A stretch of DNA of 58,286 nt, taken from Corallococcus sp. AB011P (GTDB taxonomy: Bacteria > Myxococcota > Myxococcia > Myxococcales > Myxococcaceae). Positions 1-48,937 of this stretch are shown here, in pieces. The stretch is from NCBI RefSeq assembly GCF_003611605.1, contig NZ_RAVX01000011.1, positions 196,811-255,096 of the forward strand, read 5' to 3'. The number at the start of each line of letters is the position of its first letter. Position 1 is the stretch's first letter. A program made the translations under genes and the position numbers. The notes below the pieces were generated by a model. The model worked only from the letters and a program-made list of their open reading frames with translations, searched no databases and had not been told where the DNA came from.

Positions 1-3000
1 TTCTGCTTCAGCGAGCCCAGCTGCACCAGGTCCTCCACGCGAGGCACCGAGGCCAGCGTGGCCACGGCGGACGGCGCGGGCTTACCGAGGACCGCGCGGC
101 CGTCCGTGCTCGGCTTGGGCACCGGATCCGTGGCGAGGAAGGGCACGCGCGACAGCTTCGCCACCAGGCCCGGAGGCAGCGTGTCCGTGACGACGAGGAC
201 GCCCGCGCCTCCGCCCCCGCCGCCCGCGTGGCGCACGGTGTTGCCGCGCACCACCGTCTCGCCTCGCCAGTCGATGGCCACCTCGTGGAGCACCGCCTGC
301 GGCAGCGTGTTGCCGCTCTCCAGGAAGACGTTGCCCTTCACCACCAGCTCGCCGGAGCCCACGAAGGAGGCCACCGCCTGGCCCAGTCCGGGCTCGCCCG
401 CCGTGGGCAGGCCCGCGCAGGCGAAGAGGTGGTTGTCGGAGACCACCGTCACGGACAGGTCCGGCAAGAGCCGCAGGCCCGCCACCGCGCAGCCCTCCAG
501 CCGGTTGCCGTCCACGTCCAGCAGCGAGCCCGGATCCGTCGGTGCCTCCGTCAGCAGGTGGCCCGCCGCGCCCAGGGCGGTGATGCCGGTGGCGGTGTCG
601 CGCACGGTGTTGTCCGCCAGCCGCACGCGGCCCTGCACGCCGGACACGAAGAGGCCGTCCGCGGGCGACGGGAAGGTGTCGAAGACGGGGTCCACCAGGT
701 CTCCGGGGTCCGGCGCCTCGCCGCGCGCCAGCTGCTCCAGCGACTTGCGCAGCATGTCCAGGATGGCGTCCAGCGCCTGCATGCCGGTGACGACGGCGAC
801 GAGCGACGCGGAGACCTTGTCGGCGCGCTGGCGCAGGTACTCCTGGAGCCTCGCGACTCGCGACGCGTCGTCCTCGGCGGGGTCCAGGGCCTGCTCCACG
901 GCGCGCAGCAGGACCGCGGCGGCGTCCAGTTCGGCCGTCACCGCGCTGGATCTGGCGACGGCCTCCGCGGCGGTGGTGGCGGGCTCGTCCACCAGCAGGT
1001 GCAGGGCCTGACGCGCGGGCACGTCGCCGTTGCCGCTGGTGAGCGCGGTGATGGCGTCGTTCACGCGCTGGAGCGCCAGCGTGCGGAGCTTCCCCTGGAC
1101 GCCCGCGATGTCCAGCACGCGGTCGTACTGGGAGAGGTAGAGCTGCAACGAGCCGCTGAGCACCGGCCCCGGCGCCATGCCGCGCACCGCCAGCACCAAC
1201 GCGCCCAGGGCGGAGACCCAGCGCTCCAGCGGCTCCGCCTGCACCGGCACGGGCGGTAGGGGCGTGGGCACCGGGAGCACGTCCAGCGTCTGCACCCGGA
1301 TGCGGTCCAGCAGTCCCCGGGCGATGGACACCTGCTCCAACCGATTCTGCGGCTGGGCGATGGCGTTGATCACCGCCTGGTGCGCCTGCAACGAGAGCGC
1401 GGACAGCTCCGCGTCGCCGCTCACCAGCTCGCCCAGCTGTCCCACCGCGGTGCCGAAGGCGCGCAGCTGCTTCTCCACCGTGTCGTCGGACTCGGTGACG
1501 AGGCCCGCCGCCTGCCGGTCCAGATTCGTGGCGTACAGGCCGATGGTGGCGGTGAGCCCCTGCGCCGCGACGCGCGCGCCGTCCTCCGGCGTGACGTCCG
1601 ACGAGGGCAGGACGCCGGTGGTGAAGTCCAGCACCTGCTGGAGCGTGGCGCGCATGCGGTCCACCACCGGCTGCAGCTGGCCGCCCGTGCGCTCCACGTC
1701 GCGGTAGTCCGCCTCCACCTGCGAGGCCAGCGCGGGGTGGAGCTCCTGGAGTTGATCCGTCAGGGCGTCCTTGGACGTGCGCAGCTGCACGAGCACGTCC
1801 GTGTTGGCCGTCGCGCCCCGGGTGCCCGGCTGGAGCGGCAGCTGTTGCAACGCGGCCTGGGCGAAGGTGCCGATGATGGTCTTCTTGGGGCCCACCGCCT
1901 GGCCGATGACGGGCTGCCGCGCGCGCTGCGCCTGCGCCTCGCGCAGCAGAGCCACCTGGCTCAACGCCCCCGCCAGCATGACGATCGCGGCCAGGTCACC
2001 CGGCCCGCCCTGCACCCGGGCCAGGGCCTTGAGGAGGAAATCCTGCGTGTCGGAGGGCAGCCCCTGCACCAGCGAGTCGAAGGCGCCCTTGATGCGGTCC
2101 GCGGTGCTCGCCACGGCGTCCTTGCCGGACACGGTGGCCAGGTCGAACTGCGCCACCATGTCCCACGCCTCCTGGGACACAGGCTCCGGGGCGGTGAAGC
2201 TGGAGGCGCGCGCCAGCGACGAGCGCACCGCGTGCGAGGTCTGGGTGTGATCGTTGAAGCCCTGGGCGGTACGCAGATCCGCCACGTCCGTCACCAGCGC
2301 ATTGAGGACGGAGTCGGGCACGGTCCCCAGGTCCTCCAGCTCCACCACCAGGGTGTCGAGCGGGCCGTACAGGCCCCGGCCGATCTTCTGGCGCCCGTCC
2401 ACGTTCGCGCCCGTGTACTGCAAGAGGGTGCCGTACATGCCCACCACGGCGCCGTGCACGTCCGCGCGCTCCGGGCGGACGGTGGTGCTCGTGACACTGA
2501 GTTGCTGGAGCACCACGGTGATGGGCGGCAGCTTCACGGGCCCTGGCACCGGCGGCGGCTGCGTCGTCGTCACCGGCGCGTGCACGCCGTCCACCTCGTT
2601 GCCCTCCACGGTGATGCCGGAGCCGGACACCACCGCGATGCCCGCCGCGCGCACCTCCGCGTCCGGGAGCCCGGGCGCGCCGTAGGCCTCCGTCCGCCCC
2701 ACCTGGAGCAGCCGGTTGCCGCGCACCTGCGCCTCGTCCACGCCCGAGAGCACCACCGCGCCCCGGAGCGTCAGGCGCTCCAGCCAGCGCAGCGCCGCGT
2801 CCAGGGGGGCGCGCACGCGGGTCGTGGCGTTGGCGAGGAGCGCTTCCACGAGTGGGCGGGGACGGGCCTTCGCGTCCGCGCTCAGCACTGCCTCCAGGCC
2901 CGGGTCCAGGCGGGACAGCGCCAGCGTGTTGTCCTCCTGCGACGGCACGTCCGCGAGCGCCACCTGTTCGAAGCGGTTGTCCTCCACGCGCAGGCGCCCC

Positions 3001-6000
3001 ACCGCGCCGCCCGTGCCCCAGGTGCGCACGGCCGAGTCCCCCAGCGCGCGCACCACGTTGCCTCGGATGCGCACGTCGAACACCGGCTGCGGACCGCCCA
3101 GCAGGATGCCAAAGCCCGGTGTGGACTCGCCGTCTCCCTCGATGCGGTTGTCCACCACCTCCACGTCCGAGGCGGGGCGGCCGTTGGACGCGCCGTCATC
3201 CAGGCCGTCGCCCACGACGATGCCGGCCACCACGCCCAGCACGGACGCGGCGGGCACGGCCGGCAGGGAGATCCACGACTCGCGCACGCGCAGCGCCCGG
3301 CCCGCCAGCTGGATGCCCACCTGGAACAGGCTGTCCGACACGGCGTTGCGGATCTCGTTGCCCACGATGTCCACGCCGTCGCCCGCGACCTGGATGCCCA
3401 CGGCCGCGGAGCCGAGGATCTGATTCTCCGCCACCACCACGCGGTCCACCGGCCCCGCGAGCCCCCCTTCCGCCAGGTCCTGCACCAGGATGCCCACGAG
3501 GAAGCCCTGGATGCGGTTGCCGCGCACCTCCACGCCCGCGAGGAGCCCGTCCGCCACGTGGATGCCCGTGGTCGCGTCTCCCAGCGGCTCAAGCCGGTTG
3601 TTGGTGATGGCCAGCGCGTCCACGAACAGGCCCGCGCGCGGGAAGGACGCGAGGAAGCGCTCCGCGAGATACGGGGCATACGGCGCCACCGCGATGCCTG
3701 TCGCCGCGCCGACGCGGTTCTCGTCGATGACGATGCGCTCGCAGGTGCCCGTCACCAGCACGCCTGTCGCCTCCGAGCCGGCCTGGTTCGCCTGGATGTG
3801 GCAGCGGCGCAGCGTCACGCCGCTGGAGTCCGCCAGCGTCACCACGCCGTGCGGCAGCGCCGCCAGCGCGTCGAGCAGCGGCTTCGCCTCCGGCACGTCC
3901 TCCAGTGGCTGGCCTGGATGCTGGCGTTGAAGCTTGCGCAGTTGCACCAGCGTGGCCACCACGGAACCCGCCGCGCGGCCCTGGCCCGGGACGATGGCCT
4001 TGATGCGGTCGACGACCACGTCCACGAAGTCGGCTTCGGCGGACGGGTGCTTCACGTCGTCCTCCTCCAGCACCCGGTCGTCGTCCACCTCCGCCAGCGG
4101 CACGAAGCGCTGGCCGTTCGTCAAGGCCACGCTCGCCTTCACGGCCTTCACCACGGGCTGGAGGCCGCCGCCAATCACCACGTCCTCGAAGGGAGCCTCC
4201 ACCAGCTTGAAGTCCTCGATGCGCACGTCGCCGTCCAGGCCGCAGCGGTCCACGAAGAAGGCTCCGCCGGAGCCCTGGGTGCGCAGCTCGGTGGCCTCGC
4301 CGTCGCCCAGGAGGTGCACGGAGGACAGGTTGCGCAGCAGCACCGGGTGCTCCAACTTGTAGCGGCCGGCTCGCACGAAGATGGAGCCGCCCTGCCCGCC
4401 CATGCTGTCCACTGCGGCCTGGAGCGCCTCGTCGCCGGTGATGCCTTCGAGCAGGTCCTGGTCCACGTCGCCGAAGCTGCGCACGCCGTCGCCCACCACC
4501 ACCGTGAAGACACCCGGGCCGATGACACGCTCGGAGAGCTCCACCAATCTGTCTCGCACCTGGGCGAGCGGCAGGTAGCGCGGGCGCAGGTCCTCGAAGC
4601 TTCGCGTCGCGCCGCCTGTTACGCGCGCCAGTGGCACGCAGTGGTGCACCGGGCCGTGCACGGGCGCGTCCGTGAGCTGCTCGACTTCCCCCCGGGCCGC
4701 GCCGTCCGCCGCGCGCACTCGCACGGTGAAGGACCAGTATTCGGTCGCGCGCCCTTCCGTGTTGGCGAAGGCCAGGGTGATGCCGTCGTCGAAGCGGTAG
4801 CGCACGCCGGGCACCAGCAGGTCGCCGCCGTCCCACCGGCGCACCACCGCGCCCTGCTCCGGACTGAAGGCCCGGCCCAGCGTGCCTCCCACGGGGAGCG
4901 GCACGGGGTCGGTGGTGAGCACGGCGCTCGCGTCCGCCAGCTCCAGCGTGCCCGTGTCCGCCTGGACGCCTCGCAGCCTCCGCAGCACTGGCAGTGATGG
5001 GCCTTCCGGCTGGAGCCGGGTGACGCTGTCCTCGATGACGACGAGGTCACCCGCGCGCAGCTTCGCGGCGCTCGCGGGGGAGACCTGGAGCGTCATCGCG
5101 TCCGCCGCCGCGGCTGCGGTGAGCGGGAGCACCGTGGAGCCGTTGTCTCGCGACCACAGCACCACCGGCTGCGCGCCGCCCCGGAAGAACTCCACGCGGA
5201 AGTGGAGGTTGTCGGAGCCCGTGTAGCCTTCGCCCGTGGAGGCGTTCTCCGTGGACAGGCAGCGGTCGCGGCAGGGGTCCAGCGGCTCCGGTGGGAAGCG
5301 GTCCGGCAGCGCGCCCTTCGGGATGTTGGTTGTGAGGCGTGCGCCGCTGGTGGGCGTGGGCAGGTCTTCCGCGTCGGTTGCGGCCAGCCCCTGGAGCGCG
5401 CGCACCTGGGTGACGAGCCGCAGGCGCACGGTGGTGTCCTGGCCGTCCAGCGCGGGCTCCTCCAGGAACGCGTCGTCGTACTGGGTGGTGGTCTGCTCCC
5501 AGCAGTCGAGGAAGAAGAAGTGGTGCCGCGAGCCGTCCGTGGGCAGCGCCGCCAGCGGAGGCGCCTCTGGCAGGTCCGGCTGCGCGGAGTAGCGCAGGTC
5601 CTGCTCCAGGAAGACGCGCACGCCGTCGAGCAGCATGCGGCCCGCGCCCGGCAGCGTCCCGTCACCGCCTCTTATAATGATATCGGCGCCCAGCGCCGCG
5701 TCCTCCACGCGCAGCGCGGCCACCCACGTGCGGGCCACGGGCGGCAGGCCCAGCACTCCCCAGGAGCTCAGCTTCGCCGGGTCCACGCTCGCGAACGCGG
5801 CGACGGGGAAGCGCACGTCGTTCCAGCCCGTGGGTCGCTGGCCCAGACCGGCGGAGAGGACCGTCTCGTTCCCTTCCGTGTCCGCGACGACCACTTGCAG
5901 GTCGATGAACTCATCGTCGGTGGGCGGCCGTTCGAAGCGCAAGCTGATGACGAGCGCGGAGGCGGTGAAGGCGGTGCCGTCCGAGCGCGGCACGGCCGTG

Positions 6001-6380
6001 AGATCCAACGGCGCGGGCAGCGTGCGGCGCAGCGCGACGTGGCCCCGGCTGCGCACCACGAAGGGCAGCGTCTCCGTGTCGTAGCGGTCCAGGCGCAGCT
6101 CGCGCGGGATGGTGCGCTCGTCGTCCGCGGGCAGGCCCTGCCCCGTCCAGCCGAGCACGTTGCGGATGGGGTCCACGAGGTACGTGTCGACGATGCGGAA
6201 GCCATCATCGGGCGAGCCCTCGGCGACGTCGGCGGAGCGGCGGCGCGCGTCCACGGTGCGCAGCCGCACCTCCTCGTTCCAGTCGGCGTCGAGGCTCATG
6301 CGCCCCATCTGCTGATAGACGCCAGAGAATCGCCGGGCTTCGTCGAAGCGGGACCTGGAGGTGTACGCTTTCACGGTCAT
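1..6380 (-). CDS. Giant parallel beta-helix repeat protein; tail-fibre or host-recognition candidate and last visible gene of the tail-like operon. At least 2126 aa; the C-terminus lies beyond the window start.
   Basis: The minus-strand frame is open from the ATG at 6380..6378 (MTVKAYTSRSRFDEARRFSGVYQQMGRMSLDADWNEE...) to position 1. It is missing from the ORF track only because there is no stop codon in the window. Codon third positions are almost all G/C; for example the reverse complement of 1..41 reads RVEDLVQLGSLKQ. The long plus-strand ORFs over this region (1380..4997, 228..1259, 5202..6575) have G/C at codon position 1 and an R/H/Q/A-rich composition, so they are antisense shadows. 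The protein carries many V-x-x-N-x-I/L and G-x-x-V-x-G repeats (VDNRIEGDG, VEDNRFEQV, VEGNEVDGV) typical of right-handed beta-helix (PbH1) proteins. Its start overlaps the stop of the upstream gene (ATGA at 6377..6380). Confidence 0.6.
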   Translation of the reverse strand, partial: MTVKAYTSRSRFDEARRFSGVYQQMGRMSLDADWNEEVRLRTVDARRRSADVAEGSPDDGFRIVDTYLVDPIRNVLGWTGQGLPADDERTIPRELRLDRYDTETLPFVVRSRGHVALRRTLPAPLDLTAVPRSDGTAFTASALVISLRFERPPTDDEFIDLQVVVADTEGNETVLSAGLGQRPTGWNDVRFPVAAFASVDPAKLSSWGVLGLPPVARTWVAALRVEDAALGADIIIRGGDGTLPGAGRMLLDGVRVFLEQDLRYSAQPDLPEAPPLAALPTDGSRHHFFFLDCWEQTTTQYDDAFLEEPALDGQDTTVRLRLVTQVRALQGLAATDAEDLPTPTSGARLTTNIPKGALPDRFPPEPLDPCRDRCLSTENASTGEGYTGSDNLHFRVEFFRGGAQPVVLWSRDNGSTVLPLTAAAAADAMTLQVSPASAAKLRAGDLVVIEDSVTRLQPEGPSLPVLRRLRGVQADTGTLELADASAVLTTDPVPLPVGGTLGRAFSPEQGAVVRRWDGGDLLVPGVRYRFDDGITLAFANTEGRATEYWSFTVRVRAADGAARGEVEQLTDAPVHGPVHHCVPLARVTGGATRSFEDLRPRYLPLAQVRDRLVELSERVIGPGVFTVVVGDGVRSFGDVDQDLLEGITGDEALQAAVDSMGGQGGSIFVRAGRYKLEHPVLLRNLSSVHLLGDGEATELRTQGSGGAFFVDRCGLDGDVRIEDFKLVEAPFEDVVIGGGLQPVVKAVKASVALTNGQRFVPLAEVDDDRVLEEDDVKHPSAEADFVDVVVDRIKAIVPGQGRAAGSVVATLVQLRKLQRQHPGQPLEDVPEAKPLLDALAALPHGVVTLADSSGVTLRRCHIQANQAGSEATGVLVTGTCERIVIDENRVGAATGIAVAPYAPYLAERFLASFPRAGLFVDALAITNNRLEPLGDATTGIHVADGLLAGVEVRGNRIQGFLVGILVQDLAEGGLAGPVDRVVVAENQILGSAAVGIQVAGDGVDIVGNEIRNAVSDSLFQVGIQLAGRALRVRESWISLPAVPAASVLGVVAGIVVGDGLDDGASNGRPASDVEVVDNRIEGDGESTPGFGILLGGPQPVFDVRIRGNVVRALGDSAVRTWGTGGAVGRLRVEDNRFEQVALADVPSQEDNTLALSRLDPGLEAVLSADAKARPRPLVEALLANATTRVRAPLDAALRWLERLTLRGAVVLSGVDEAQVRGNRLLQVGRTEAYGAPGLPDAEVRAAGIAVVSGSGITVEGNEVDGVHAPVTTTQPPPVPGPVKLPPITVVLQQLSVTSTTVRPERADVHGAVVGMYGTLLQYTGANVDGRQKIGRGLYGPLDTLVVELEDLGTVPDSVLNALVTDVADLRTAQGFNDHTQTSHAVRSSLARASSFTAPEPVSQEAWDMVAQFDLATVSGKDAVASTADRIKGAFDSLVQGLPSDTQDFLLKALARVQGGPGDLAAIVMLAGALSQVALLREAQAQRARQPVIGQAVGPKKTIIGTFAQAALQQLPLQPGTRGATANTDVLVQLRTSKDALTDQLQELHPALASQVEADYRDVERTGGQLQPVVDRMRATLQQVLDFTTGVLPSSDVTPEDGARVAAQGLTATIGLYATNLDRQAAGLVTESDDTVEKQLRAFGTAVGQLGELVSGDAELSALSLQAHQAVINAIAQPQNRLEQVSIARGLLDRIRVQTLDVLPVPTPLPPVPVQAEPLERWVSALGALVLAVRGMAPGPVLSGSLQLYLSQYDRVLDIAGVQGKLRTLALQRVNDAITALTSGNGDVPARQALHLLVDEPATTAAEAVARSSAVTAELDAAAVLLRAVEQALDPAEDDASRVARLQEYLRQRADKVSASLVAVVTGMQALDAILDMLRKSLEQLARGEAPDPGDLVDPVFDTFPSPADGLFVSGVQGRVRLADNTVRDTATGITALGAAGHLLTEAPTDPGSLLDVDGNRLEGCAVAGLRLLPDLSVTVVSDNHLFACAGLPTAGEPGLGQAVASFVGSGELVVKGNVFLESGNTLPQAVLHEVAIDWRGETVVRGNTVRHAGGGGGGAGVLVVTDTLPPGLVAKLSRVPFLATDPVPKPSTDGRAVLGKPAPSAVATLASVPRVEDLVQLGSLKQ

Positions 6381-9300
6381 GGTCGGCTCATCCGGACGAG
6401 GTCGTCCTGGCTGCGGTCGGCGTGGAAGGGCGTGATGCCAATGGGCATGCTGTCGTCGGTGCGCGCCTGGAGTTCGCGCTCGTGGTTGGAGCGCTCGTCG
6501 TGGGCACCGGGGACTCCGCCGCGCTCGGAGGCGTGGAGCGCTTCGGGGCCGTTGTTGTCGCCCAGGACGAGGTAGCCCGGGTCCGTCTGGCGGTTCGACT
6601 GGAAGGACACGGTGTGCACCCGCGACTGGTGCGACACCGGAGGCTGTCCACCGCGCGCGAGGAGGCTGTAGCGCAGCCAGCCCAGGTCCGGCCGGTCCGT
6701 GCGCACCTCGCCCGCGAAGGCGCAGGAGGACGCCTCCAGCACGCCCGCCTCCGTGGCGCCCAGCACCGTGCAGTGCCGCAGCCGAACGCTCGCGCCCGCC
6801 GCGCGGATGGCGACGGCGTCACGGTCCCCCGCGTCGAAGGTGCAGCCCGCGGCGATGAGGTGCACCCAGGGCGGCAGCTCGATGGCGCCCACCATGCAGC
6901 CGTAGAGGCGCAGCTCCACATCAGCGGGAGGCAGGGAGCGCCGCGCGCTGATGTCCTGGTGCCCACCGCCGGGCATCCACAGTCCCACCTGTCCGGGCGC
7001 GCCCAGGCTGCACCAGCGCAGGTCCGCTTGCCCCCGAGCGAGCACCAGGTCCAGCCGTCCCGCGAGCCACAGGCCCGCGAGCCACACACGCGTGGCCGCG
7101 CTGCCTCCGAAGCCCGGGTAGAGCGCCAGCGAGAGGCCGTGCTCGTCCGCGCCGATGCAGGGCACCGCGCCCGTGTCCGCGGCGAAGAGGGACAGCCCGT
7201 AGTCCAGCCCCTGTGACAGGCGCTCCGGAGCCAGACGCGGCGAACCGATGAGGCCCAGAATCGGCGGCGATCCGGCTGGGCTCTCTTCTGCGAGGTTCGC
7301 GATATCCGGCGGCACCTGACCTTCAGTCGCGACCACCGAGGACGCGCCGGAGTCGAGACCTTGTGCGCCGACCGAGCCGATGGGTCGCGCCTGGCCTCCA
7401 GTCGCCAGCACCACGGACGCGCCGGAGTCGAGACCTTGCTCGATGGTCGCGACGATGGGCCGCTCCTGGCCTCCGGCCGCCAGCACTCCGCCCGCGCGCT
7501 CCGGGGAGATCCACGCGGTGACAGGGAGGCCGGTGCTGGAGCGGTCGCCAGGACGGTCCGGTGGGTCGATGAATGGGAAGTCCGGCTCCGCCCACGCCGC
7601 GGGCGGACGGCGGTCCGGCGGAAGCAGCCCCGCTCCCAATGAGGCGCCCCGCCCTACCCGCGCGGAGAGGGTGACGCGGCCCACGGGCGCGTCGTCCTGG
7701 AGCACGACGCGGCCCAGGCGCGGATCCACCGCGACGATGCCGGAGGCGATGCTCGGAGCGAGCGTCGTCCACGGGCCCAGGCTTCGCTGGCGCAACTGGA
7801 ACGGATGGCGCCGCAGCCGTCCGGGCACCGAGTAGCGCCGCGCGCCACCTGCGACGGAGGCATCCCGCGAGTGGTACGCGCCACCGGGCCGGGAATCGAG
7901 CGGGAGCGGCTGGCCCTCGCGAGGCTCGATGAACGCGGCGCCGTCGTTGGCGACGTTGAAGCGCAGGAGCTCATCCGGGAGCAGGGCCAGCTCTGGCAGG
8001 AACGCCAGGTAGCCGCGTCCGCCCAGTGAGAAGACGACCTCCGACGCGGGCAGCGGCGCCGGATCCACGAGGAGCACGCGACCATCGACGTACAGCGCTT
8101 CGCCCGGAACCGGCGGGTTCGAGCCCGAGGGCTCCAGCAGTCCCGCGACCCAGGCACCCTCGCCTGCCTTCAGCGTCATCCATTGAGGACGCGTCGTGTC
8201 CGCCCAGACAAGCGCCTCCACGCCGTCGGCGGTGGTGGTGGCCACGAGCGTGCCGGGCAGGTTCGCGGTGATGGGCAGCGGGGCCAGGGAACGCCAGACA
8301 GGGCTCGCGGAGGCCGGGTCGCAGGACATCACCGGCACGGCCAGTTCTCCCGTCACGGCCTCGCCGCCCAGGAGCATCAGTCCTTGCGCCGTGCTCAGCA
8401 GCGTCGCGGCCTTGCGCTCCTGGCGGTTGCGCACCGCATGGGGACGCCACGGTCCGCCCGTGACCGGCAGCGACCAGAGGTCTCCGGTGGGCGCGCCACC
8501 CAGGTCACCGCCAAAGACGAAGAGCCGGCCGCCGCGCACGCACAGGCTGGGGGCCAGTCGCGCCGCGGGCTGCCGGGGGCTCGTGGTGTCCAGCCGCGTC
8601 CCCGTCGGAGTCGCGGTGTCCAGGCCTGTCACCGACCACACACCCAGCTTCCCCGTACCGTCAGGTGCCACCAGCAACAGCGAGTCGCCAGCCGCGGCCA
8701 GGGACATACCGGGACCCTCCGGAGGCAACGCGCCGCTGAGCTCCGCCACCTGCCATGGCGCACCGTCGGCGCTCGCGTCGAAGCGGGCAAGGCGCAGGCT
8801 GCCGTCCGCGAGGTGTTGCTCGATGCGCGCGACCCATGCCGCACCGGCCAGGTCCACACGGACGGCGTTGCTGCGCGGAGGCCCCTGGCGCAGGCCCACG
8901 GCGAGGGTGCGCCACGTACCGTCCACGTCGCGCAGGCGCGGATCACCGCTCACGCGTTCGACGAGCAGCGCCGCCGTGGTGCCGCCCAGGAGCTGGTTCG
9001 CCTCCGGCGTGACGGTGACGGTGTTCAGGGCGTCCGACACCAGCTCGGTGGACAGGAGCACCGTGTCCGAGTTCTCACGCGCGGCGAGCAGCGTCAGTCG
9101 CCAGGTGTCTCCGGGCGAAGGCCTGCCCCGGTCCGCGAACCGCAGCGTGGGCGCGGGCCCCACGGGCGCGGTGGGCAGCGGTCCGCGCAGGAGCGGCAGG
9201 GCTTCCGGCCCCACCAGCGGAATGCCGTCGACGGAGACGGTGATGGCATCCGCGCGTTCGGCGGCGTCGGCGTCCTCGGCCAGCGCGGTGGGGGTGAGCA

Positions 9301-10168
9301 GCATCGCCGCCGTGCGTCCCGTGGCGAGCGACGGAGGCGCGGGCTCATGGCGCGCGGTGAGGCCTCCGGTGAGGTCCGCGCGCTCCAGGGGCTTGAGCCA
9401 CACCAGGGGACCATCGCGGTCCAGGGGATCCACGCGGAAACCCCGGTAGCCGTTGGGCAGCGCTTGCACGGTGGCTGGGGTGACGTCCTCCAACTCCACG
9501 GGCGTCAGGCGCGCGGTGCGGATGAGGGCGACGTCCGGACGTGCCCAGCCCAGCAGGTCCAGCGTGCGCGGCGTCGCGGCGACACGGCCCGCATCCGCGC
9601 TCCCCAACCGGCGCAAGGCCTGATCCAGCGTCTCTCCCGGCGCGATGCCAATGAAGGGGCCACGCTCCGGGACACCGTCGCGGGGACGCTCGATGCCAGG
9701 TGAGCGGCGGGTGAGCGGATCCGCGAGGCCGATGGGATCCCACATCACCGCGCTGCGACCGCGCCAGGGCAGCAGGTCATTGAGGTCCTGGGTCTCCAGC
9801 AGCGAACGGAAGGACTCGTCGACCTCCGCGTCCCAGAGGCTGGTGACGGAGAGCACCTCCTCCAGCGACGCGAGCGTGCCCTTCCGTCTGCGCCACGCCA
9901 CCGCGCGAGCCACCACGCCGCGCTGCACGCGAGGGTCGTCGGTGATCAGCCGTGCGCCCATCAACTCCGCGAGCAACGGCAGCGCCTGCGGGCCCGCGCG
10001 CTCCACGAAGTGATCATCCCAGAGCTGGTCCACCGCGCTCGCGAACGCGTCCAGTTCCATGCCCAGCACGGCGAGCAGCTTGAGGAGCGGCTGGTCCGCG
10101 AGCGTGGAGTCCCGCGCCGTGTAGAGGCCGGGGAGGAGCTGGAGCAGTCGCTGGGAGGGCCGGCTCAT
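6377..10168 (-). CDS. P2 gpI-like (Tail_P2_I family) baseplate or tail protein with Kelch-like repeats and a C-terminal beta-helix region (1263 aa).
   Basis: ORF 6377..10249. The start is chosen at the ATG at 10168 (MSRPSQRLLQLLPGLYTARDSTLADQPLLKLLAVLGMELDAFASAVDQLWDDHFVERAGPQALPLLAELMGA...RRKGTLASLEEVL). This N-terminus fits the LLP...LWD...LP.LA.l.G...kR...r.KGT pattern of phage P2 tail protein I. Further on come Kelch-like blades (GGRLFVFGGDLGG, LMLLGGEAV) and a C-terminus with IAAGCTFDAGDRDAVAIRAAGASVRL-type beta-helix motifs. Confidence 0.65.
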   Translation of the reverse strand: MSRPSQRLLQLLPGLYTARDSTLADQPLLKLLAVLGMELDAFASAVDQLWDDHFVERAGPQALPLLAELMGARLITDDPRVQRGVVARAVAWRRRKGTLASLEEVLSVTSLWDAEVDESFRSLLETQDLNDLLPWRGRSAVMWDPIGLADPLTRRSPGIERPRDGVPERGPFIGIAPGETLDQALRRLGSADAGRVAATPRTLDLLGWARPDVALIRTARLTPVELEDVTPATVQALPNGYRGFRVDPLDRDGPLVWLKPLERADLTGGLTARHEPAPPSLATGRTAAMLLTPTALAEDADAAERADAITVSVDGIPLVGPEALPLLRGPLPTAPVGPAPTLRFADRGRPSPGDTWRLTLLAARENSDTVLLSTELVSDALNTVTVTPEANQLLGGTTAALLVERVSGDPRLRDVDGTWRTLAVGLRQGPPRSNAVRVDLAGAAWVARIEQHLADGSLRLARFDASADGAPWQVAELSGALPPEGPGMSLAAAGDSLLLVAPDGTGKLGVWSVTGLDTATPTGTRLDTTSPRQPAARLAPSLCVRGGRLFVFGGDLGGAPTGDLWSLPVTGGPWRPHAVRNRQERKAATLLSTAQGLMLLGGEAVTGELAVPVMSCDPASASPVWRSLAPLPITANLPGTLVATTTADGVEALVWADTTRPQWMTLKAGEGAWVAGLLEPSGSNPPVPGEALYVDGRVLLVDPAPLPASEVVFSLGGRGYLAFLPELALLPDELLRFNVANDGAAFIEPREGQPLPLDSRPGGAYHSRDASVAGGARRYSVPGRLRRHPFQLRQRSLGPWTTLAPSIASGIVAVDPRLGRVVLQDDAPVGRVTLSARVGRGASLGAGLLPPDRRPPAAWAEPDFPFIDPPDRPGDRSSTGLPVTAWISPERAGGVLAAGGQERPIVATIEQGLDSGASVVLATGGQARPIGSVGAQGLDSGASSVVATEGQVPPDIANLAEESPAGSPPILGLIGSPRLAPERLSQGLDYGLSLFAADTGAVPCIGADEHGLSLALYPGFGGSAATRVWLAGLWLAGRLDLVLARGQADLRWCSLGAPGQVGLWMPGGGHQDISARRSLPPADVELRLYGCMVGAIELPPWVHLIAAGCTFDAGDRDAVAIRAAGASVRLRHCTVLGATEAGVLEASSCAFAGEVRTDRPDLGWLRYSLLARGGQPPVSHQSRVHTVSFQSNRQTDPGYLVLGDNNGPEALHASERGGVPGAHDERSNHERELQARTDDSMPIGITPFHADRSQDDLVRMSRP

Positions 10169-10373
10169 GGGGTCCGCACCTCCACGAGGAACAGCCTTGC
10201 GTCGCGGCCACGGGAGCCCGCCCTGACGCGGTGGCCGTCGGCCCTCCACGGCGAGGCATGGCTCAGAGGTCCCGAACTTCCTGTCGGACAGCTCAGCGCG
10301 TCATCCCCGCCATGGCGTCCCGCGCCAAGCCCCCGGACCTCAAGGCGGTCCCCCTCCCGCCCGGACCGCTCCC

Positions 10374-10398
10374 AACCTGTCCGACAGTCGGACAGGTT
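10374..10398. repeat. 25-bp near-perfect palindrome AACCTGTCCGACAGTCGGACAGGTT (arms of 11-12 bp).
   Basis: Read directly from the sequence. Its reverse complement is identical except for the central dinucleotide. Confidence 0.9.
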
Positions 10399-10513
10399 TC
10401 CGGGGCCCGGCGGGAGCGGGGGCGTCCCCCAGCCACACCGGCTGGCGCGGCAGGTCCGACAGGCAGCGTCCCGGGGAGCCCGACAGGCCCGGGAGGCCCC
10501 CTGCGGTCGTCCA

Positions 10514-10538
10514 AACCTGTCCGACAGTCCGACAGGTT
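10514..10538. repeat. Second copy of the 25-bp palindrome (AACCTGTCCGACAGTCCGACAGGTT), 140 bp from the first.
   Basis: Read directly from the sequence. It has one mismatch relative to the first copy. Confidence 0.9.
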
Positions 10539-10655
10539 CGTGCGGTGCGCCTCCATGGAGGGGCCCCAGTCGGGCTCCCACCTGTGCATCCACAGGGACG
10601 GAGTCCGTGTCCCGGGGCGTGAGGCAGCGCTTGTTCAGGCGCATCGAGGCGGGGC

Positions 10656-13157
10656 TCATAGGTCCTGGGCCTCCTCGTAGGTGAGCGCGACGCCATCGCT
10701 TTCTCCGGACGGCGGAGCCCATGCGAGCAGCTCGCCGGGCGCGGTGACGATGCGCTCGAAGAGGGCTGGCGGCGTGCCTTCGCGGTGCAGCCGCTGCACG
10801 ACCACTGAGCGCAGTCCCTCGATGCCCGCGAGCGCGCCGTACACGTCCGACAGTTGCAGGTCCTGTCCCAGCTCCACGCGGTCCGGATCCAGCAGGCCGG
10901 GCTCGCGCTCCGGGTCGCGGTCCACGCCCAACCGCAGGCGCGTCTCTTGAAGCACCGCGACCGGATCCGCGCCCTTCACCACGCGCAGCAGCACCCGCAG
11001 CCGCACCTCCACGCGCTGCCGGTTGGTCAGGTGCAGCTCCACCTTCGGCGCCACCCGTGCCGCCAGGTGCGCGTGGAGGGCTTCCAGGTCCGACGCGCCA
11101 AGGGCCGCTCCTTCTGGCCCGGAGACCACCACCTTCAACGAACGGCGGCGCACGCCGTCCCGGAACACGTTCGCGCGGTGCACTCCGTCGAACACCAACG
11201 TCAGCGCACGCACGTCCGAGAGAGACACGGCGCGGTCCATCGCGCCCACCGCCGCGGGCCCTCGCACGCGCGCCAGCGCCGGTGCCTCCGGATCTGTTCC
11301 TCCGGCCAGCGGCAACGGGTTGAACGTCTTCTCCACGCACGGATGCGGGCTCGCCATCGCCAGCAGCCGCAGCGCGGCCCGGTTGCCTCCCGTCCCTCTG
11401 CCCACGCGGTAGCGGACCCGCACCTCCGCGCCCAGGGGCAACGCCGAACCGTGCTCCCCTTCCCCGAAACGAAGCCTCGCGGCCCCGGCCGGTAGCGGCT
11501 CCACCGCGAAGGCCAGCTCATCCGGCGCGGCGTCCAACAACGAATCCACCGGATGCCACGCGCGTCCCCCCACCGTCAGGGACACTTCCGGGCGGCGGCC
11601 TCCCGCTCGGCTCGGGTCGCGCAGCCAGGTCACCGGTCCATGCAGCAGCGGCACCGTGCGCAGATCCAGCGCGGGCACGGCGACCTCCTCCACCGTGGAG
11701 CCCTCGCTGACGAGCGTGTTGTTGCCCAGCAGCACCACGCGATCCAACGCGTACGCGCGCGACAGCGGCGGCTGGAACGTCACCTGCGTCATCGGCGTGC
11801 GCTGACCGGGCGGGACCTCCGTGCGGACGCGCAGCACTCGCAGCGCTTCTCGGTAGAGCCGCTCCGTGCCCTTCGCTCCGCCGGGGCCCAGGCGCTCCAC
11901 GTCCTCGGCCAGCACGAACCAGTCTCCCGGGCGCACCGGTGGATCCTGCGAGGTGAGCCCGGAGGCATCCGTCAGCGGCGGCAGATAGAGGCTGTCCGTG
12001 CCAGATGCCGCCACGCCCAGCGGCCGGGCCACGCCCGCCTCCGCGCCAAAGGCCTGGTCCGCCCGGTTCAGCGCTTCACTGCCCTTGAGGATGACGAGTT
12101 GATCCCGCGCCTCCTGGATGAGGCTGTTCACGAAGGCATCCAGGAACGTGACCATCTTGTCCAACCGGACCGCGTGCACGGTCGGATCCTCGTCCGCGCA
12201 CGGGGCCAGCGCCTCCTCCAGCGCGGCCAGTGCGTCCGCCTGCCGCTTCTGCAAGTTCCGGAGCTGGCGGGCGAGGATCTCCTGCGACTCGGACAACGCG
12301 CCGACGGGACGGCCGGGCGGAGGCACGGCCTGCGCCACGACCTTCTGGGCCTCGCACAGTTGTTCGCAGAGCGCGTCCAGCGTGCTCTTGCACGCGGCAT
12401 CTCCACCCAGGTCCAGCGTCTTCATCAACGACGCCAGCTTGCGAGCATCCTGCTTCGCACGAGCCACCTGCCGTTCCTCCAGTGGACCGTGGCGCTGCAC
12501 CTCGATGCGCTCCTGGAGCCCCGCGACCACCGAGCCAGGCCCGAAGATTCCGCCCGTGGGCGCCGGAGCCCCGGGCTCACCCGGCTCGCCAGAAGGCGCG
12601 CCGGTCCCCCCACCCGTTCCACCCGTGCCCGTTCCCCCGCCCGTCCCGGCTCCAGCTCCGGTCCCTGCTCCAACCGGAGGAGGCAGGAACGCGCGAAGCT
12701 CGTTGAGCTCCGGCGACAGGCGCAGCGGCGCGAGCGTCTCGAACACGGCGGCGGTCTCTTCCCCTTCCGCCGCCGAATTCACCGCCGTTCCCGCGGACAG
12801 CGTGCCGCGCACGTTCGCCTTGCAGCGAAAGTGCTGGAGCCCCACCGCCGCGGTGCCCGGGCTCGGCCGATAACCGATGTGCCCGAGCAACTTGGAGACG
12901 GAGTCCTCCAGCCGCGCGGTGGCGAGGAAGCCCTCCTCCGCCCACGCCTGCTGATACGTCCACAGCACATGCAGCGCGAGCGCCACGCTGTCCAGCAGGC
13001 CCCGCCCCAGGTCCACCGAGGATGGCGCCGCGTACGCGAGAGGATTCCACGTGGGCGCCTCGTCCAGCCGGGCGTAGACGATGCGCGCCGACTCGCCCAG
13101 CCGGGTGCGGAGCTGATCATGCGTCAGCGCCTGGTGCGTGGAAGGAACGCGACTCAT
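10656..13157 (-). CDS. Second baseplate wedge protein of the gp6/gpJ type (a Baseplate_J-like paralogue), with an internal coiled-coil and a Gly-rich linker (833 aa).
   Basis: ORF 10656..13508. The real start is most likely the ATG at 13157 (MSRVPSTHQALTHDQL...), which overlaps the stop of the upstream gene as ATGA. The segment LLDSVALALHVLWTYQQAWAEEGFLATARLEDSVSKLLGHIGYRPSPGTAAV resembles the Baseplate_J core and parallels RDAQSLLAVMLERARTVMAPW...DSLAYQQERAVVEGFLEDARL in the neighbouring J protein. A G/T-rich low-complexity linker (GAGTGAGAGTGGGTGTGG) is followed by a heptad-like helix (ERQVARAKQDARKLASLMKTL). Confidence 0.45.
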   Translation of the reverse strand: MSRVPSTHQALTHDQLRTRLGESARIVYARLDEAPTWNPLAYAAPSSVDLGRGLLDSVALALHVLWTYQQAWAEEGFLATARLEDSVSKLLGHIGYRPSPGTAAVGLQHFRCKANVRGTLSAGTAVNSAAEGEETAAVFETLAPLRLSPELNELRAFLPPPVGAGTGAGAGTGGGTGTGGTGGGTGAPSGEPGEPGAPAPTGGIFGPGSVVAGLQERIEVQRHGPLEERQVARAKQDARKLASLMKTLDLGGDAACKSTLDALCEQLCEAQKVVAQAVPPPGRPVGALSESQEILARQLRNLQKRQADALAALEEALAPCADEDPTVHAVRLDKMVTFLDAFVNSLIQEARDQLVILKGSEALNRADQAFGAEAGVARPLGVAASGTDSLYLPPLTDASGLTSQDPPVRPGDWFVLAEDVERLGPGGAKGTERLYREALRVLRVRTEVPPGQRTPMTQVTFQPPLSRAYALDRVVLLGNNTLVSEGSTVEEVAVPALDLRTVPLLHGPVTWLRDPSRAGGRRPEVSLTVGGRAWHPVDSLLDAAPDELAFAVEPLPAGAARLRFGEGEHGSALPLGAEVRVRYRVGRGTGGNRAALRLLAMASPHPCVEKTFNPLPLAGGTDPEAPALARVRGPAAVGAMDRAVSLSDVRALTLVFDGVHRANVFRDGVRRRSLKVVVSGPEGAALGASDLEALHAHLAARVAPKVELHLTNRQRVEVRLRVLLRVVKGADPVAVLQETRLRLGVDRDPEREPGLLDPDRVELGQDLQLSDVYGALAGIEGLRSVVVQRLHREGTPPALFERIVTAPGELLAWAPPSGESDGVALTYEEAQDL

Positions 13158-16100
13158 CGCAGGCCTCCGCACACCTGCACGGTGAGGACGCCTTCCGAAC
13201 CCGGCCAATAACCACCCCGAGCGGTGGCCACCTCGTCCGGTCCAATGGGAATGACGCCCGCCTCCAGCCGCTCCTGCGCGTGGGGCTCCAGCCGGCGGAA
13301 GCGCTTCACCCGCACCGCCGTCACACCCGGTACACGCAGCACCGCCTGGTACAGGTCCGCGAGCTGCACGTCGCCGTTCAGGCCAGAGCGGTCCGGATCC
13401 AACAGGCCGCCGTCCCCAGCGATGGCGCCCACCACCGCGTCGCGCACCTGGTCGGCCTGCGCATGCGGCTCGGCATCCACCTCCAGGTCCAAGTCGAGCG
13501 GCACCCACTTGGGCGGCAGCGCCTCCACGTCCACGCCCAGCAGGCGGATTTCCTCCAGCCGGCTGCGCACTCCAGCCCAGCGGCGAAGCAGCTCGTCGCG
13601 GTCGAGTGTGTCCTCGTCGCGCAGCAACACCGTCACGCGGATGACCGTGCGCAGGTCCCGGTCCACGGCGCGCGCCGAAGCCCCCGCCACCTCCGGCATC
13701 TGCTGGAGCATCCGCACGTAGTCATCGACCGTGACGGCGGACAGCGGCTGCGACACGCCCGCCGGTGCGCGGTAACGAAGGGAGTCGAGCGACTCCGCGT
13801 CGCGTCCCCCCACCGCAGGCAGCGGGTTATCCACGCGCACCAACGCGCGCACGTCGTCCATCGACTGGGCCAGCAGCTCGCCCGCGGACGCGGAGCGCTG
13901 CGGATCCAACGGCACCTGGAGCAACCGCGTGAGCACGCCCTCCCCCACGTTGGCCACCGTCCCCAGCCCGACGCGCAGCGACAGTCCCAGCGTCGTCTCC
14001 CGAGGCGGCAGCGCGGCGCCGTTGACGCCATCGCCCCAGCGAAGGCTGGCGCCACCCGTGGGCGTCGCGCGCAGCACGAACACCTCATCCCCCGGCCCCT
14101 GGACGGACAGGTCGTCCACCAGCGTCCAGGGGTCGTCCTCCACGCTCACCTGGAGCTGGGGTGTCCCGCGCCGCGACGTCTCCTCCGGCAGTGGATACCC
14201 GGAGGCCTGGACGCTGACTGGATGGAACGGCAGGGCGAACTCGCGCTCCTCGCTGCCGTCCACCACCGGGGACAGCAACGCGCGCCACTGCGCGAGGCTG
14301 CGCGCGAAGGGCTCCGCCGAGTCCGCCTCGAAGCCCTCTGGAAGCGGCGTCACCGGCAGCCCGTGATGCGCGGGCACCACGTTGCCCAGCACCGTCGCGC
14401 GAGGCCCGGGCGCGGGGTCTCCCGGTGCCAGGAATACCTCCGGCGCGAACCTGCGCGGGTCCCACCCGACGAAGGTCGTATCGGTGGCGAGCGCCACGGA
14501 CGTCACTCGCACCACGTGTCCGCCCTCGCCGCGGCCCTGGTAGAGGATCAGCCACCGGCCGGGCTCCAGCTCCGGGTACAGGCCCGCGAGCGTGGCGCCC
14601 GTGTCCCCCAACTGCACGGACTCCGCGAGCGTCACGGCCTCCAGCCGGGGGAAGTACGACAGGGGCGACTCGGTGACGAACACCAGCGAGTGCTCGTCCG
14701 TGGAGCCATTCGCCACCAGCGTTTCGGCGGGAATCTCCAGCACGCCGCCACCGGTGAGGAACTCCAGCGCGGTGGTGCCGGGCGGCAGCACTGTCAGGTT
14801 CAGTTCCTCCAGCCGAGCCTTCACCAGCGCCGCGAGTGCCTCCGGATCCAACCTGAACCGCAGCATCACCGTGGCGGAGAGCCCCGGGTCCGGCACGCAA
14901 TCCAGCCCGCGTGCGTGGTCCTCCACGGAGCGCCGCAACCGGGCATCCTCCAGGAAGCCCTCCACCACCGCGCGCTCCTGCTGGTACGCCAGCGAGTCCA
15001 GCTGCGCGGCCACGGCCTCCAGCAACATGGTCGTGAAGTCCGCGGGCCCCCGGTCCTCCCACGGCGCCATCACCGTGCGGGCCCGCTCCAGCATCACCGC
15101 CAGCAGCGACTGCGCGTCGCGGGCCCGGTAGTCCACCAGCGCGCCAGGCGCCGGCCGCTCCGGGGCCGCGAGCCACGGGCGCGGCTGCGGATCCCGCACG
15201 TCACAGCCCGGCACCACGTCCGGAGCCCACGCGCCAATGAACGGCGCCGGGTCACGAGGACCATCGCCCGGAACCGGCACGGCCGCGCGCGAGATGGCCG
15301 CATCCGGCACCAGCCGCAGGTCCACGGTCTCCGGTGGCGGCAGGCCGCCGGTGAGCAACACGGGAGGGACCTCCGGAGTCCCCGGCGTCCGGTACGGCAG
15401 CGGCCCCACCTCCAGGAACGGCGGGGCCGCGCCCTGCGCGAACAGCGCGGGCGATGCGGACAGCTCCGCGTCTGGCTCCAGCACGAAGGGCGCGCCCACG
15501 ATGGCCGTGAAGAGCGAGTCGTACGCGCGAATCTCCCCGGGTCCCAACCGCAGCCCATGCGCATGCCGGTGCCAGGTGAGCTGCGCGAGCAGCAGCTGCT
15601 CCGCCTGGAGCCAGCCCGCGTGCACCGACGTCCAGGCCTCGGTGCGCCGCACCAGCGCCGTGCGCAACCCGCCCTCCAGCTGCAACGCGGTGCCGGTGAT
15701 GACGAAGAGGGAGCAGTCCTCGACGGCGATCTCCCCCGGCGTGCCCACGTCCAGCACCGGCTCCAGGCCGCCCAGCGGCGCGGCCACGTGCAGGCCCACG
15801 ACGTCCGCATCCATGGGAAACCCAGGCAGCGTCAGCGGCCCCACGACCGAAGCAGACAGTGCATCCAACGCGACGGAGAGCCAATCCGACCACGCCGCAG
15901 CGGGCTGCGCGGACACCGGCACGGGCGCCGCCGACACACGGCTCACCTCCACGTCGCGAACCACCACCGGCTCCAGCGAAGGTCCCCCCAGCACCCGCAT
16001 GCCCGTGGCGCGCGTTCCGGCGGCGATGTCCTCCACCTGGCCCATGGCCACTTCGATGCTCCGCCCACCCAGCGCGAGCACGCCCATCGGGAACCCGCCC

Positions 16101-18767: not shown

Positions 18768-19496
18768 TCAGCTCGCCCCGTCGAGCTTCACCTGCGGCGC
18801 CAGGGCCTGCGCGATGAGGGTGCTCGCGTCCGCGCCCTTCACCGCCGCCAGGTCCTCCATCCGCAGGCGCTGGTCGCGCAGGTTCGCGAACGCCTGGGCC
18901 ACCTTGTTGTTCGCCGCGTTCTCCCCCACCTCCAGGATGCGCATGCGCAGGTCCACCTCCGCGCGCAGCGGGAATAACGCCGGGTCGAATCGCTGCTCCA
19001 CGATGGTCATCCCGGTGATGACCACCGGGAAGGTGCGCGGCCCCAGCATCAAGAGCAGCTCCGTGGGGTTGAGCGAGACGAGCTTCGTCGCGGGCTTCTT
19101 CTCCTCGTCCCCTGTCTGGTCCTTGCCCAGCGCCATGCCCTCCAGCACGGCCAGCTCCGGCAGCACGCCCTGGACGCCCTCCCCCACGGTGTCCCGCAGC
19201 AGCGCCTCCGTCACGTCGAAGACGAGCTTGAGGGCAATCGTCTCGCTCTTGGCGTGCAGGCCGCCGCCGCGCTGGCCGTCGGTGAGGATCTTGGTCTGCT
19301 CGGGCGTCTTGCCGGGCTTCGTCTCCCACTGGCCCGCGCGCGTGCGCGTCACCGTCTCCGGGTTGTACTGGAAGCGCAGCGCGATCACTCCCGGCTCGGC
19401 CTTCGGGTCGGCGGACGACGGCGGCAGCGTCACCAGCATGCCCTTCTGGAGCTGCTGGTCGAACGCGATGAGCGTCGGGTCCAGGTTGCGCGTCAT
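18768..19496 (-). CDS. Conserved contractile-tail protein, possibly the tube-initiator (Afp7 N-terminal or gpU-position) protein, 242 aa.
   Basis: IALRFQYNPETVTRTRAGQWE resembles the FxFNPE signature recalled for eCIS tube-initiator proteins. In Afp7 the equivalent domain is fused to LysM; here a separate LysM-like gene follows directly. The start overlaps the stop of the 70-aa ORF (ATGA). Confidence 0.35.
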   Translation of the reverse strand: MTRNLDPTLIAFDQQLQKGMLVTLPPSSADPKAEPGVIALRFQYNPETVTRTRAGQWETKPGKTPEQTKILTDGQRGGGLHAKSETIALKLVFDVTEALLRDTVGEGVQGVLPELAVLEGMALGKDQTGDEEKKPATKLVSLNPTELLLMLGPRTFPVVITGMTIVEQRFDPALFPLRAEVDLRMRILEVGENAANNKVAQAFANLRDQRLRMEDLAAVKGADASTLIAQALAPQVKLDGAS

Positions 19497-19705
19497 CCGT
19501 TGCCCCGGGCGCCGGCCGGCTCGCGCTGGGCGAGGCTCCGGGCAATGGCTTCGTTGTTCTTGTCCATCAGCGCCACCATCGTCTGGGTGAACAGCTTCAC
19601 GAACTCCTTGGGGTCATCCGGCACGCTGCGCAGCATCCACGCGAGCTCACGCTCCATCTCGCGACGGGTGAGTCCGACCTGTCCTTGCACCGGGGGTGGG
19701 GCCAT
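19493..19705 (-). CDS. Small helical hypothetical protein (70 aa) in the tail operon.
   Basis: High GC3. It is translationally coupled to the downstream gene. A GAGAGGA Shine-Dalgarno sequence lies 9 nt upstream. It is in the same frame as the upstream 291-aa ORF, separated by a TGA-C stop plus 6 codons. Confidence 0.45.
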   Translation of the reverse strand: MAPPPVQGQVGLTRREMERELAWMLRSVPDDPKEFVKLFTQTMVALMDKNNEAIARSLAQREPAGARGNG

Positions 19706-19723
19706 GGCGTGTGCGTCCTCTCG

Positions 19724-20599: not shown

Positions 20600-20600
20600 G

Positions 20601-21092: not shown

Positions 21093-21116
21093 GGCTTCAC
21101 TCCTCGAATGGAGACG

Positions 21117-24007: not shown

Positions 24008-24017
24008 CCTCCTGGTT

Positions 24018-37078: not shown

Positions 37079-37091
37079 GAGCAGGGCCGCC

Positions 37092-48928: not shown

Positions 48929-48937
48929 GGTCGCCTC

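Follow-up and report, generated by a model that had tools for sequence, protein, structure and literature searches.

A Kelch-bearing gpI-type protein and a giant DUF6519/beta-helix protein as the probable outer baseplate module of a contractile injection system in Corallococcus

Two very large genes lie one after the other on the minus strand at one end of a 58,286-nt stretch of DNA from Corallococcus sp. AB011P (hereafter the window; all positions refer to it unless stated otherwise). They raise the question of whether genes of such a size are genuine in this G+C-rich DNA and, if so, what the encoded proteins do. The initial annotation of the window described them as a gpI-like protein with Kelch-like and beta-helix repeats, followed by an exceptionally long beta-helix fibre, and regarded them as the host-recognition apparatus of a particle targeting polysaccharide-coated cells. 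According to our analysis, the first gene (gene A, 6377..10168, minus strand) encodes a 1263-aa (amino acids) gpI-type baseplate wedge/adaptor protein. The second (gene B, 3..6380, minus strand) encodes a giant DUF6519/beta-helix appendage protein, the first 2126 of its 2537 codons being present in the window. The reading that we favour, with somewhat better than even confidence, is that both proteins form the outer baseplate module of a contractile injection system (CIS), in which the gene B appendage contacts a surface polysaccharide and triggers contraction. This reading is supported because the genes are located in a CIS operon, show homology to Tail_P2_I and DUF6519, include a beta-helix of the tailspike fold, and are adjacent in 30 of 30 loci.

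The first 25 kb of the window had a G+C content of 72–74% and contained spurious long open reading frames (ORFs) on all strands; G+C content by codon position was used to tell genuine genes from spurious ORFs. On the minus strand, this analysis delimited coding frames at 3..6818 (G+C content at the third codon position, GC3, of 0.92) and 6380..10300 (GC3 of 0.87). Gene A starts with an ATG at 10168, preceded by a putative ribosome-binding site (GGAGG, 10 nt upstream), ends with a stop codon at 6377–6379, and has no internal stops. Its N-terminus agrees with the family consensus. A protein with 100% identity to it is known from Corallococcus sp. AB011P; an exact-sequence look-up with gene A returned no record. 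The ATG of gene B at 6380 overlaps the TGA of gene A as CCATGACC (an ATGA overlap), and the frame is open over 2126 codons, down to position 3. Because gene B runs off the end of the window and has no stop codon in it, it was missing from the ORF list, just as the initial annotation had stated for a frame open over more than 6.3 kb; the coordinates, lengths, and ATGA coupling that it gave for both genes were also correct. The missing 3′ end of gene B (411 codons), together with the downstream genes, was supplied by a contig of Corallococcus sp. AB045 (L002). It encodes a full-length homologue of 2537 aa, differing from the window protein in 3 of 2126 residues; gene B residues beyond 2126 are read from this homologue.

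High-GC DNA yields many long spurious ORFs, such as those found on every strand of the window, and the long frame of gene B could accordingly be seen as an artefact of the 73% G+C content, as several shorter genes, or as a pseudogene. The evidence refutes this explanation and leaves it a negligible probability. In both genes, the third codon position was the GC-richest one in all 300-nt intervals (gene B, at least 0.91; gene A, at least 0.79); therefore, any sign of a frameshift was absent. More than 90 gene B homologues have a similar length, with identities of 36–98%, gene calling yields one and the same gene in three phyla, and the structural models of both products are confident. High GC3 and similar-length single-gene homologues across phyla thus speak for two single, intact, very large genes and not for a series of short or frameshifted ones.

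The N-terminal part of the gene A product (aa 26–118, 9815..10093) matched the Tail_P2_I domain of phage P2 gpI (Pfam PF09684, E = 4e-7, 30.4 bits, cut-off of 20.6). A weak match to the tail protein family phrog_48 was also detected, while the cut-off of TIGR02242 was missed (22.3 vs. 51.85 bits). A six-bladed Kelch-type beta-propeller was predicted at aa ~430–750 (7919..8881). The Pfam Kelch score of the single gene A sequence was 28.5, below the gathering score of 50; precomputed Kelch Pfam matches were present in many gene A homologues. The AlphaFold2 (AF2) model of aa 64–1263, built from 60 homologues, had a predicted local distance difference test score (pLDDT) of 84, mostly above 90 in the propeller, and a predicted template modelling score of 0.83. 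In a Foldseek search of the PDB, the top 50 matches were all Kelch domains (including KLHDC2, Keap1, KLHL12, and LZTR1; E = 1e-10), with alignments of ~320 columns spanning whole Kelch domains. The family profile, in turn, matched the LZTR1 Kelch domain among PDB sequences (E = 9.6e-13). Because the AF2 model, the Foldseek search, and the family-profile match all point to it, the predicted propeller is considered real in spite of the sub-threshold score of the single sequence.

The propeller region is connected with the C-terminal domain by a linker comprising a 75-nt (25-aa) tandem repeat in 2.4 copies (aa ~895–954, 7308..7486; Tandem Repeats Finder), which had a pLDDT below 50 in the AF2 model. 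The copy number of this repeat varies among Corallococcus strains, resulting in gene A products of 1213, 1238, 1256, 1263, and 1282 aa. The conserved, Cys/Gly-rich, all-beta C-terminal domain (aa ~968–1183, 6620..7267) was modelled with a pLDDT above 90; it showed invariant C, G, and W columns in the family alignment and, in the model, short strands in groups ~20 residues apart, so it is possibly a short beta-solenoid. Pfam scans of the isolated segments aa 120–470, 760–1000, and 960–1263 gave no match. A common beta-helix origin of genes A and B is unsupported because hhalign between the gene A family and the gene B family, or the gene B beta-helix, gave a probability of 1.7%, i.e., no relationship. 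Thus, of the fusion that had been proposed for gene A, the gpI N-terminus and the Kelch part stand; the beta-helix part is without sequence support and appears as a strand pattern in the model only.

Gene B begins with the N-terminal segment of a DUF6519 (eBAP5) anchor domain (aa 1–55, 6216..6380; Pfam PF20129, 36 bits, cut-off of 22.4), in which aa 7–53 aligned with profile positions 5–51. Comparison of the giant family with canonical DUF6519 proteins of 1.2–1.8 thousand aa by hhalign gave a probability of 100% (E = 1.6e-62, 414 columns), aa 256–746 of gene B being aligned with canonical positions 75–523. Because of the gap between the Pfam and hhalign matches, the domain is taken to be complete but interrupted by an insertion of ~190 aa. 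Its main body (aa ~246–620, 4521..5645) is the most conserved part of the protein. The insertion (aa ~60–245, 5646..6203) appears as a beta-sandwich, a predicted jelly roll with strands at aa 67–227, in the AF2 model of aa 1–1200, which was built from a 31-sequence alignment and had a pLDDT of 83. Foldseek matches of ~190 columns to the carbohydrate-binding modules CBM4-2, CBM11, and CBM22 (template modelling score of ~0.55) probably belong to this insertion, as suggested by the alignment length.

A right-handed parallel beta-helix (beta-helix 1, aa ~625–1140, 2961..4508) follows the anchor. It was recognized by Pfam (Beta_helix, PF13229; 42–45 bits, cut-off of 25.9), contains eight PbH1-like motifs, and carries, according to AF2, a disordered/helical insertion at aa 734–843. 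Its structural matches in the PDB were PfbA, GH87 glucanase, inulin fructotransferase, RbmB, AlgE4, depolymerases of Klebsiella phages, and the tailspikes of HK620, Sf6, and CBA120; those in BFVD were phage tail proteins of the pectate-lyase type. All of these fold matches had an identity of ~10%. Additionally, gene B matched the tail spike family phrog_2234. The structure prediction and fold search proposed in the initial annotation, therefore, did reveal a tailspike/depolymerase-like beta-helix within aa 1–1200, the resemblance being at the fold level.

The next region of the gene B product (aa ~1150–1900, 681..2933) is rich in Ala, Leu, and Gln, weakly conserved, and probably alpha-helical: helices were predicted at aa 1152–1199, the end of the AF2 model, and aa ~1300–1900 gave only weak matches, to helical-bundle proteins. 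A single beta-helix-like rung was found inside it near aa 1256. Beta-helix 2 is predicted at aa ~1905–2070 (171..668), where four PbH1-like motifs occur and where aa 1900–2075 aligned with beta-helix 1 in hhalign (probability of 95.7%, E = 1e-8, 92 columns). Motifs of the V-x-V-x-G-N-x-I type cluster at aa 883–1135, 1256, 1919–2017, and from 2192 onward. PbH1-type repeats are, therefore, present as had been reported, covering about one third of the protein rather than filling it. The last 35 residues are strongly conserved. Self-BLAST of gene B did not find internal duplication, its comparison with PDB sequences (as a single sequence and as a profile) gave nothing significant, and Pfam scans of the isolated segments aa 55–250, 1150–1920, and 1900–2537 gave no match. 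Neither a membrane anchor nor a simple coiled-coil shaft is supported because the hydropathy scan revealed no transmembrane segment in the product of gene A or gene B, and the heptad scan of gene B no sustained coiled-coil periodicity.

The operon containing both genes begins, on the minus strand, with a gene for a 652-aa protein (24021–25976), followed by a 775-aa sheath, two gp19-type tubes, a 291-aa protein (19727–20599), CIS_tube, a LysM/tail-X protein, a gpD-like hub, and gp25/W. Next are the genes of a 1255-aa Baseplate_J protein (13154..16921; Pfam PF04865) and of a second, 833-aa J-like baseplate protein (J2; 10656..13157; a match to a phrog baseplate wedge subunit), which scored 128.9 and 147 bits, respectively, with TIGR02243 (cut-off of 155.8), and then genes A and B. 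The 652-aa and 291-aa proteins had no significant family match. Downstream of gene B on the AB045 contig (L002, 11622–17293), genes for 113 and 69 aa precede a gpV/gp5-type spike gene (395 aa), followed by a 64-aa gene and by genes for a 536-aa protein, weakly similar to tape-measure proteins, and for a 720-aa protein of no recognised family. This one operon thus brings together the genes for sheath, tube, and spike with those for gp25 and J-type baseplate proteins, as in extracellular contractile injection systems (eCIS) of the Afp/PVC type. Capsid and terminase genes were absent from the locus, which represents a stand-alone CIS and not a prophage. Gene A directly follows the two J-like genes in this contractile-tail operon, and the order was the same at three other loci checked. 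Gene B, in turn, is located after gpI, where the fibre gene belongs, and its product has the DUF6519/eBAP5 fibre anchor, in agreement with the placement of the pair in the distal apparatus by the initial annotation.

The full-length homologues of gene B are nearly all of ~2385–2836 aa, and those of gene A, more than 70 in several phyla, are of ~1180–1304 aa. A scan of ~185,000 species genomes, with one genome per species, yielded 37 loci in Myxococcota (many Corallococcus species, other Myxococcaceae, Archangium, Kofleriaceae, Haliangiales, Polyangiaceae, and Minicystis), Actinomycetota (Micromonospora, Cellulomonas, and Acidimicrobiales), and Alphaproteobacteria (Mesorhizobium and Rhodospirillaceae). 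At each of the 30 loci for which upstream sequence was available, no more than a few bases lie between the end of the gene A homologue and the gene B start. Micromonospora and a Rhodospirillaceae metagenome-assembled genome (MAG) have an identical gene order, with both tandem J-type genes conserved: J, J2, A, B, two small genes, spike, a small gene, and genes for ~540 and ~800 aa. Farther downstream, both loci encode a protein of 1682–1702 aa, which in Rhodospirillaceae has an eCIS_core (PF13699) match.

DUF6519 corresponds to eBAP5, one of the five eCIS 'baseplate anchor protein' domains of the 2026 fibre catalogue published in Nat Commun (PMC12923769). According to this catalogue, eBAP5 fibre genes are located downstream of Tail_P2_I genes, the products of which are predicted fibre adaptors resembling TssG and R-pyocin attachment, the eBAP5–Tail_P2_I attachment itself being an AlphaFold-multimer prediction. 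The C-termini of eBAP5 proteins often bear beta-helix pectin-lyase folds, those of eCIS fibres are described as plastic and horizontally exchanged, and the eBAP5 class is known from Actinomycetota and Pseudomonadota (PMC12923769). Gene B shares with eBAP5 fibres the N-terminal DUF6519, the position directly after a Tail_P2_I gene, and the beta-helix after the anchor; because of these features, the combination of gpI and a beta-helix fibre is a case of the published Tail_P2_I/eBAP5 baseplate type. At the same time, gene B encodes ~2537 aa, compared with 620–1504 aa for eBAP5 fibres among the catalogue examples listed. Its anchor, unlike theirs, is split by the ~190-aa jelly roll at a different place, with the Pfam model matching residues 7–53 only. 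Further differences from catalogued eBAP5 fibres are the ~750-aa helical section, the extra beta-helices, the conserved, non-plastic C-terminus, and the Kelch propeller of the gpI partner. As judged from the catalogue entries listed, the giant pair is apparently an oversized, previously undescribed branch of the eBAP5 type and not a new kind of machine.

The contigs with the giant gene do not appear among the entries listed in the supplementary tables of the catalogue, so their absence from it is probable, not certain. Another eBAP5 gene, RAWM01000031.1_1 (GCA_003668875.1), is listed there, and the contig RAWM01000107, which carries a giant gene, has the same RAWM prefix; from this shared prefix, we infer that both contigs come from one assembly, which the catalogue analysed. 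The catalogued Corallococcus eBAP5 genes that are listed (one of 620 aa, one of 1504 aa, and an IMG gene with a DUF6519 match at 1–156 of 59 bits) all differ from gene B. Two catalogue entries were considered as counterparts of gene B and rejected: the 'mega pectin lyase' has only 1079 aa (PMC12923769), and the C. coralloides eBAP5 entry, as listed, combines a 59-bit DUF6519 match at 1–156 with no Beta_helix and fits a different, 620-aa type.

Like gpI–gpH of phage P2 and PA0619–PA0620 of R-type pyocins, in which the genes follow the order W-J-I-fibre, the A–B locus has this order and a Tail_P2_I N-terminal domain. It differs from them in the size of gene A (1263 aa, while P2 gpI has ~176 aa), in two J paralogues instead of one, and in the spike gene located downstream of the fibre; no sequence similarity was found between gene B and P2 gpH. 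In phage T4, the functional analogue of gpI is gp7, a protein of ~1032 aa with a small core-bundle segment followed by ~1000 aa of peripheral domains, which hold the fibre-attachment proteins. Gene A is likened to gp7 by analogy only, and a Kelch propeller is, to our knowledge, not a feature of gp7. The contrast in size with known gpI and eCIS proteins that was drawn in the initial annotation, therefore, holds in part: the largest eBAP5 fibres among those listed in the catalogue have 1079 and 1504 aa, and in T4 the gpI analogue is itself a large protein. Tailspikes and depolymerases (HK620, Sf6, CBA120 TSP3, and Klebsiella K64-1 S2-4), as well as the adhesin PfbA, have in common with gene B a right-handed beta-helix of similar length (Foldseek probability of 1.0). 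Gene B differs from the tailspikes in having ~10% identity and no common catalytic motif, in its beta-helix making up about one fifth of the protein, and in having neither a head-binding domain nor a C-terminal chaperone.

If genes A and B do encode an outer baseplate module, gene A would be a wedge subunit of the gpI/T4 gp7/TssG type. Through its first ~120 residues, it would associate with the two J-like proteins in the wedge core, and the remaining ~1100 residues would extend to the baseplate periphery as beta-sandwich domains, the Kelch propeller, the repeat linker, and the Cys-rich all-beta domain. Wedge triplexes have the architecture (gp6)2-gp7 or (TssF)2-TssG, with two non-equivalent J positions occupied by a homodimer in T4, R-pyocin, and type VI secretion systems (T6SS); by analogy, the two J paralogues of the Corallococcus operon may fill these two positions. 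The gene B protein would dock on the gene A platform via its N-terminal DUF6519 (eBAP5) anchor and project outward as a long, probably trimeric appendage. From the baseplate outward, it would consist of the anchor with the jelly roll, the tailspike-like beta-helix, the ~750-aa helical section, two more stretches of beta-helix, and the conserved C-terminal cap. The jelly-roll and beta-helix surfaces would most likely bind a surface polysaccharide, and this contact would be relayed to the baseplate and cause sheath contraction, as with phage fibres and tailspikes. A role in host recognition, glycan binding, or depolymerization, as envisaged in the initial annotation, is suggested only by the gene position and by a generic pectin-lyase fold at ~10% identity.

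Several results weigh against a recognition appendage of this kind. Gene B is 41% identical between Corallococcus and Micromonospora/Rhodospirillaceae over ~2400 aa, like the baseplate core; in the same phyla, the identities were 45–46% for J2, 41–44% for gene A, and 58–64% for the spike. Its variation among Corallococcus strains is evenly spread, with no swapped or hypervariable cassette. A search with aa 1201–2126 against 1.84 billion representative proteins gave 43 matches, all of them in its own family, the full-length ones carrying the match at the gene B position and the remainder being short pieces; therefore, neither phage fibres nor other protein families have this C-terminal half in common with gene B. 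Such core-like conservation and a family-exclusive C-terminus are atypical for a receptor-binding protein and, combined with the extreme size and the cross-phylum distribution, unusual for a CIS fibre. The plastic, horizontally exchanged C-terminal modules by which eCIS fibres are characterized were not observed in gene B, and its pattern is more in keeping with an appendage under structural constraint than with a receptor binder that evolves fast. Pfam did not find lectin, catalytic, or intramolecular-chaperone domains in gene B, nor was a catalytic motif identified in it. We also failed to recognize by Pfam an Afp15-type AAA+ ATPase or a DUF4255 (Afp16) cap (window positions 18771–25976 and L002 11622–19447), several of the scanned proteins matching no family at all; therefore, the system can be called an extracellular one only tentatively.

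The slow evolution of gene B, similar to that of the baseplate core, keeps alive the explanation that it is a structural or anchoring scaffold (a giant baseplate skirt, a cage, or a tether to envelope or matrix polysaccharide of the producer) and not a recognition fibre. This would liken the system to other CIS classes anchored in or on the producer cell, with which the lack of recognised ATPase and cap genes among the scanned proteins agrees. The divergence equal to that of J2 and gpI (41% vs. 41–46%), the even variation without a cassette, the length held to ~2385–2836 aa across phyla, the conserved extreme C-terminus, and the restriction of the C-terminal half to 43 representatives of the giant family are also in its favour. 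Nevertheless, neither protein has a transmembrane segment, gene B resembles fibres in its DUF6519 anchor and in its location after gpI, its beta-helix and CBM-like folds are of the kind typically seen in tail proteins that bind glycans, and the conservation is equally explicable by a conserved target; we consider a scaffold unlikely. Still less likely, in our opinion, is that gene B is mainly an enzyme, i.e., a baseplate-mounted polysaccharide lyase, hydrolase, or epimerase clearing capsule, exopolysaccharide, or cell-wall glycan for the tube, by likeness to phage depolymerase tailspikes. The folds closest to beta-helix 1 do include enzymes (GH87 alpha-1,3-glucanase, inulin fructotransferase, Klebsiella phage depolymerases, RbmB lyase, and AlgE4 epimerase) along with the HK620, Sf6, and CBA120 tailspikes, and several D and R columns, such as D851, D1072, and R1031, are invariant in it; D631, D650, D693, D711, D775, and R815 are invariant as well. 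However, identity to every enzyme was ~7–16% (E from 1e-6 to 1e-3), the top PDB match, PfbA, is a non-enzymatic adhesin, and neither a family-specific catalytic motif nor a Pfam enzyme family was detected. The invariant residues are mostly G and N, which is what turns and Asn ladders would lead one to expect.

Beyond these two explanations, the Kelch-gpI protein, the 2.5-thousand-aa DUF6519 protein, and the two J paralogues might together define a distinct cross-phylum CIS lineage with a T4-sized baseplate, the appendage being a co-evolving structural or enzymatic organ. We regard this as a tentative proposal, rather doubtful at present. If true, it would mean that a CIS can be coupled to a surface in another manner, e.g., through a polysaccharide-processing or anchoring scaffold instead of an exchangeable fibre.

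Whichever function the outer baseplate module has, CIS are being re-engineered for protein delivery, fibres and baseplate adaptors being the parts on which their targeting relies. The Tail_P2_I/eBAP5 type includes a rare branch with a 1263-aa adaptor and a ~2537-aa appendage, evolving as slowly as the core machine. An appendage recognizing a conserved glycan would be a ready-made targeting module of broad specificity, while a scaffold would represent an unrecognised baseplate architecture. Because the giant family seems to have escaped the 2026 catalogue, as judged from the entries listed, divergent anchors are suggested to be still missed. The A–B pair does not demonstrate a new principle.

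A non-coding gap of 487 nt (10169..10655) separates the J2 gene from gene A. It contains two palindromic elements of 26–29 nt, AACCTGTCCGACAGTCGGACAGGTT, at 10370–10398 and 10510–10538 (140 nt apart), as well as half-sites near 10280 and 10454. The corresponding gap of C. coralloides DSM 2259 is longer, with more copies of the element at a spacing of ~140 nt; in Micromonospora and the Rhodospirillaceae MAG, J2 and gene A adjoin without a gap. The AB045 contig ends within the gap, ~190 nt upstream of gene A. A scan of the 487-nt gap for sigma-70 promoters and terminators gave nothing, and the gap resembles an intergenic array of repeats with variable copy number or an array of regulator-binding sites.

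Elsewhere in the window, a T6SS cluster encoding TssF, a gp25/TssE-like protein, VipB/TssC, and others was located at 32437–40984, ~6 kb away from where the injection-system operon begins, with a PAS histidine kinase gene and other genes in between. The plus strand contains an open frame of 1959 codons at 48929–54805, where the local G+C content is ~63% and the GC3 value is 0.84.

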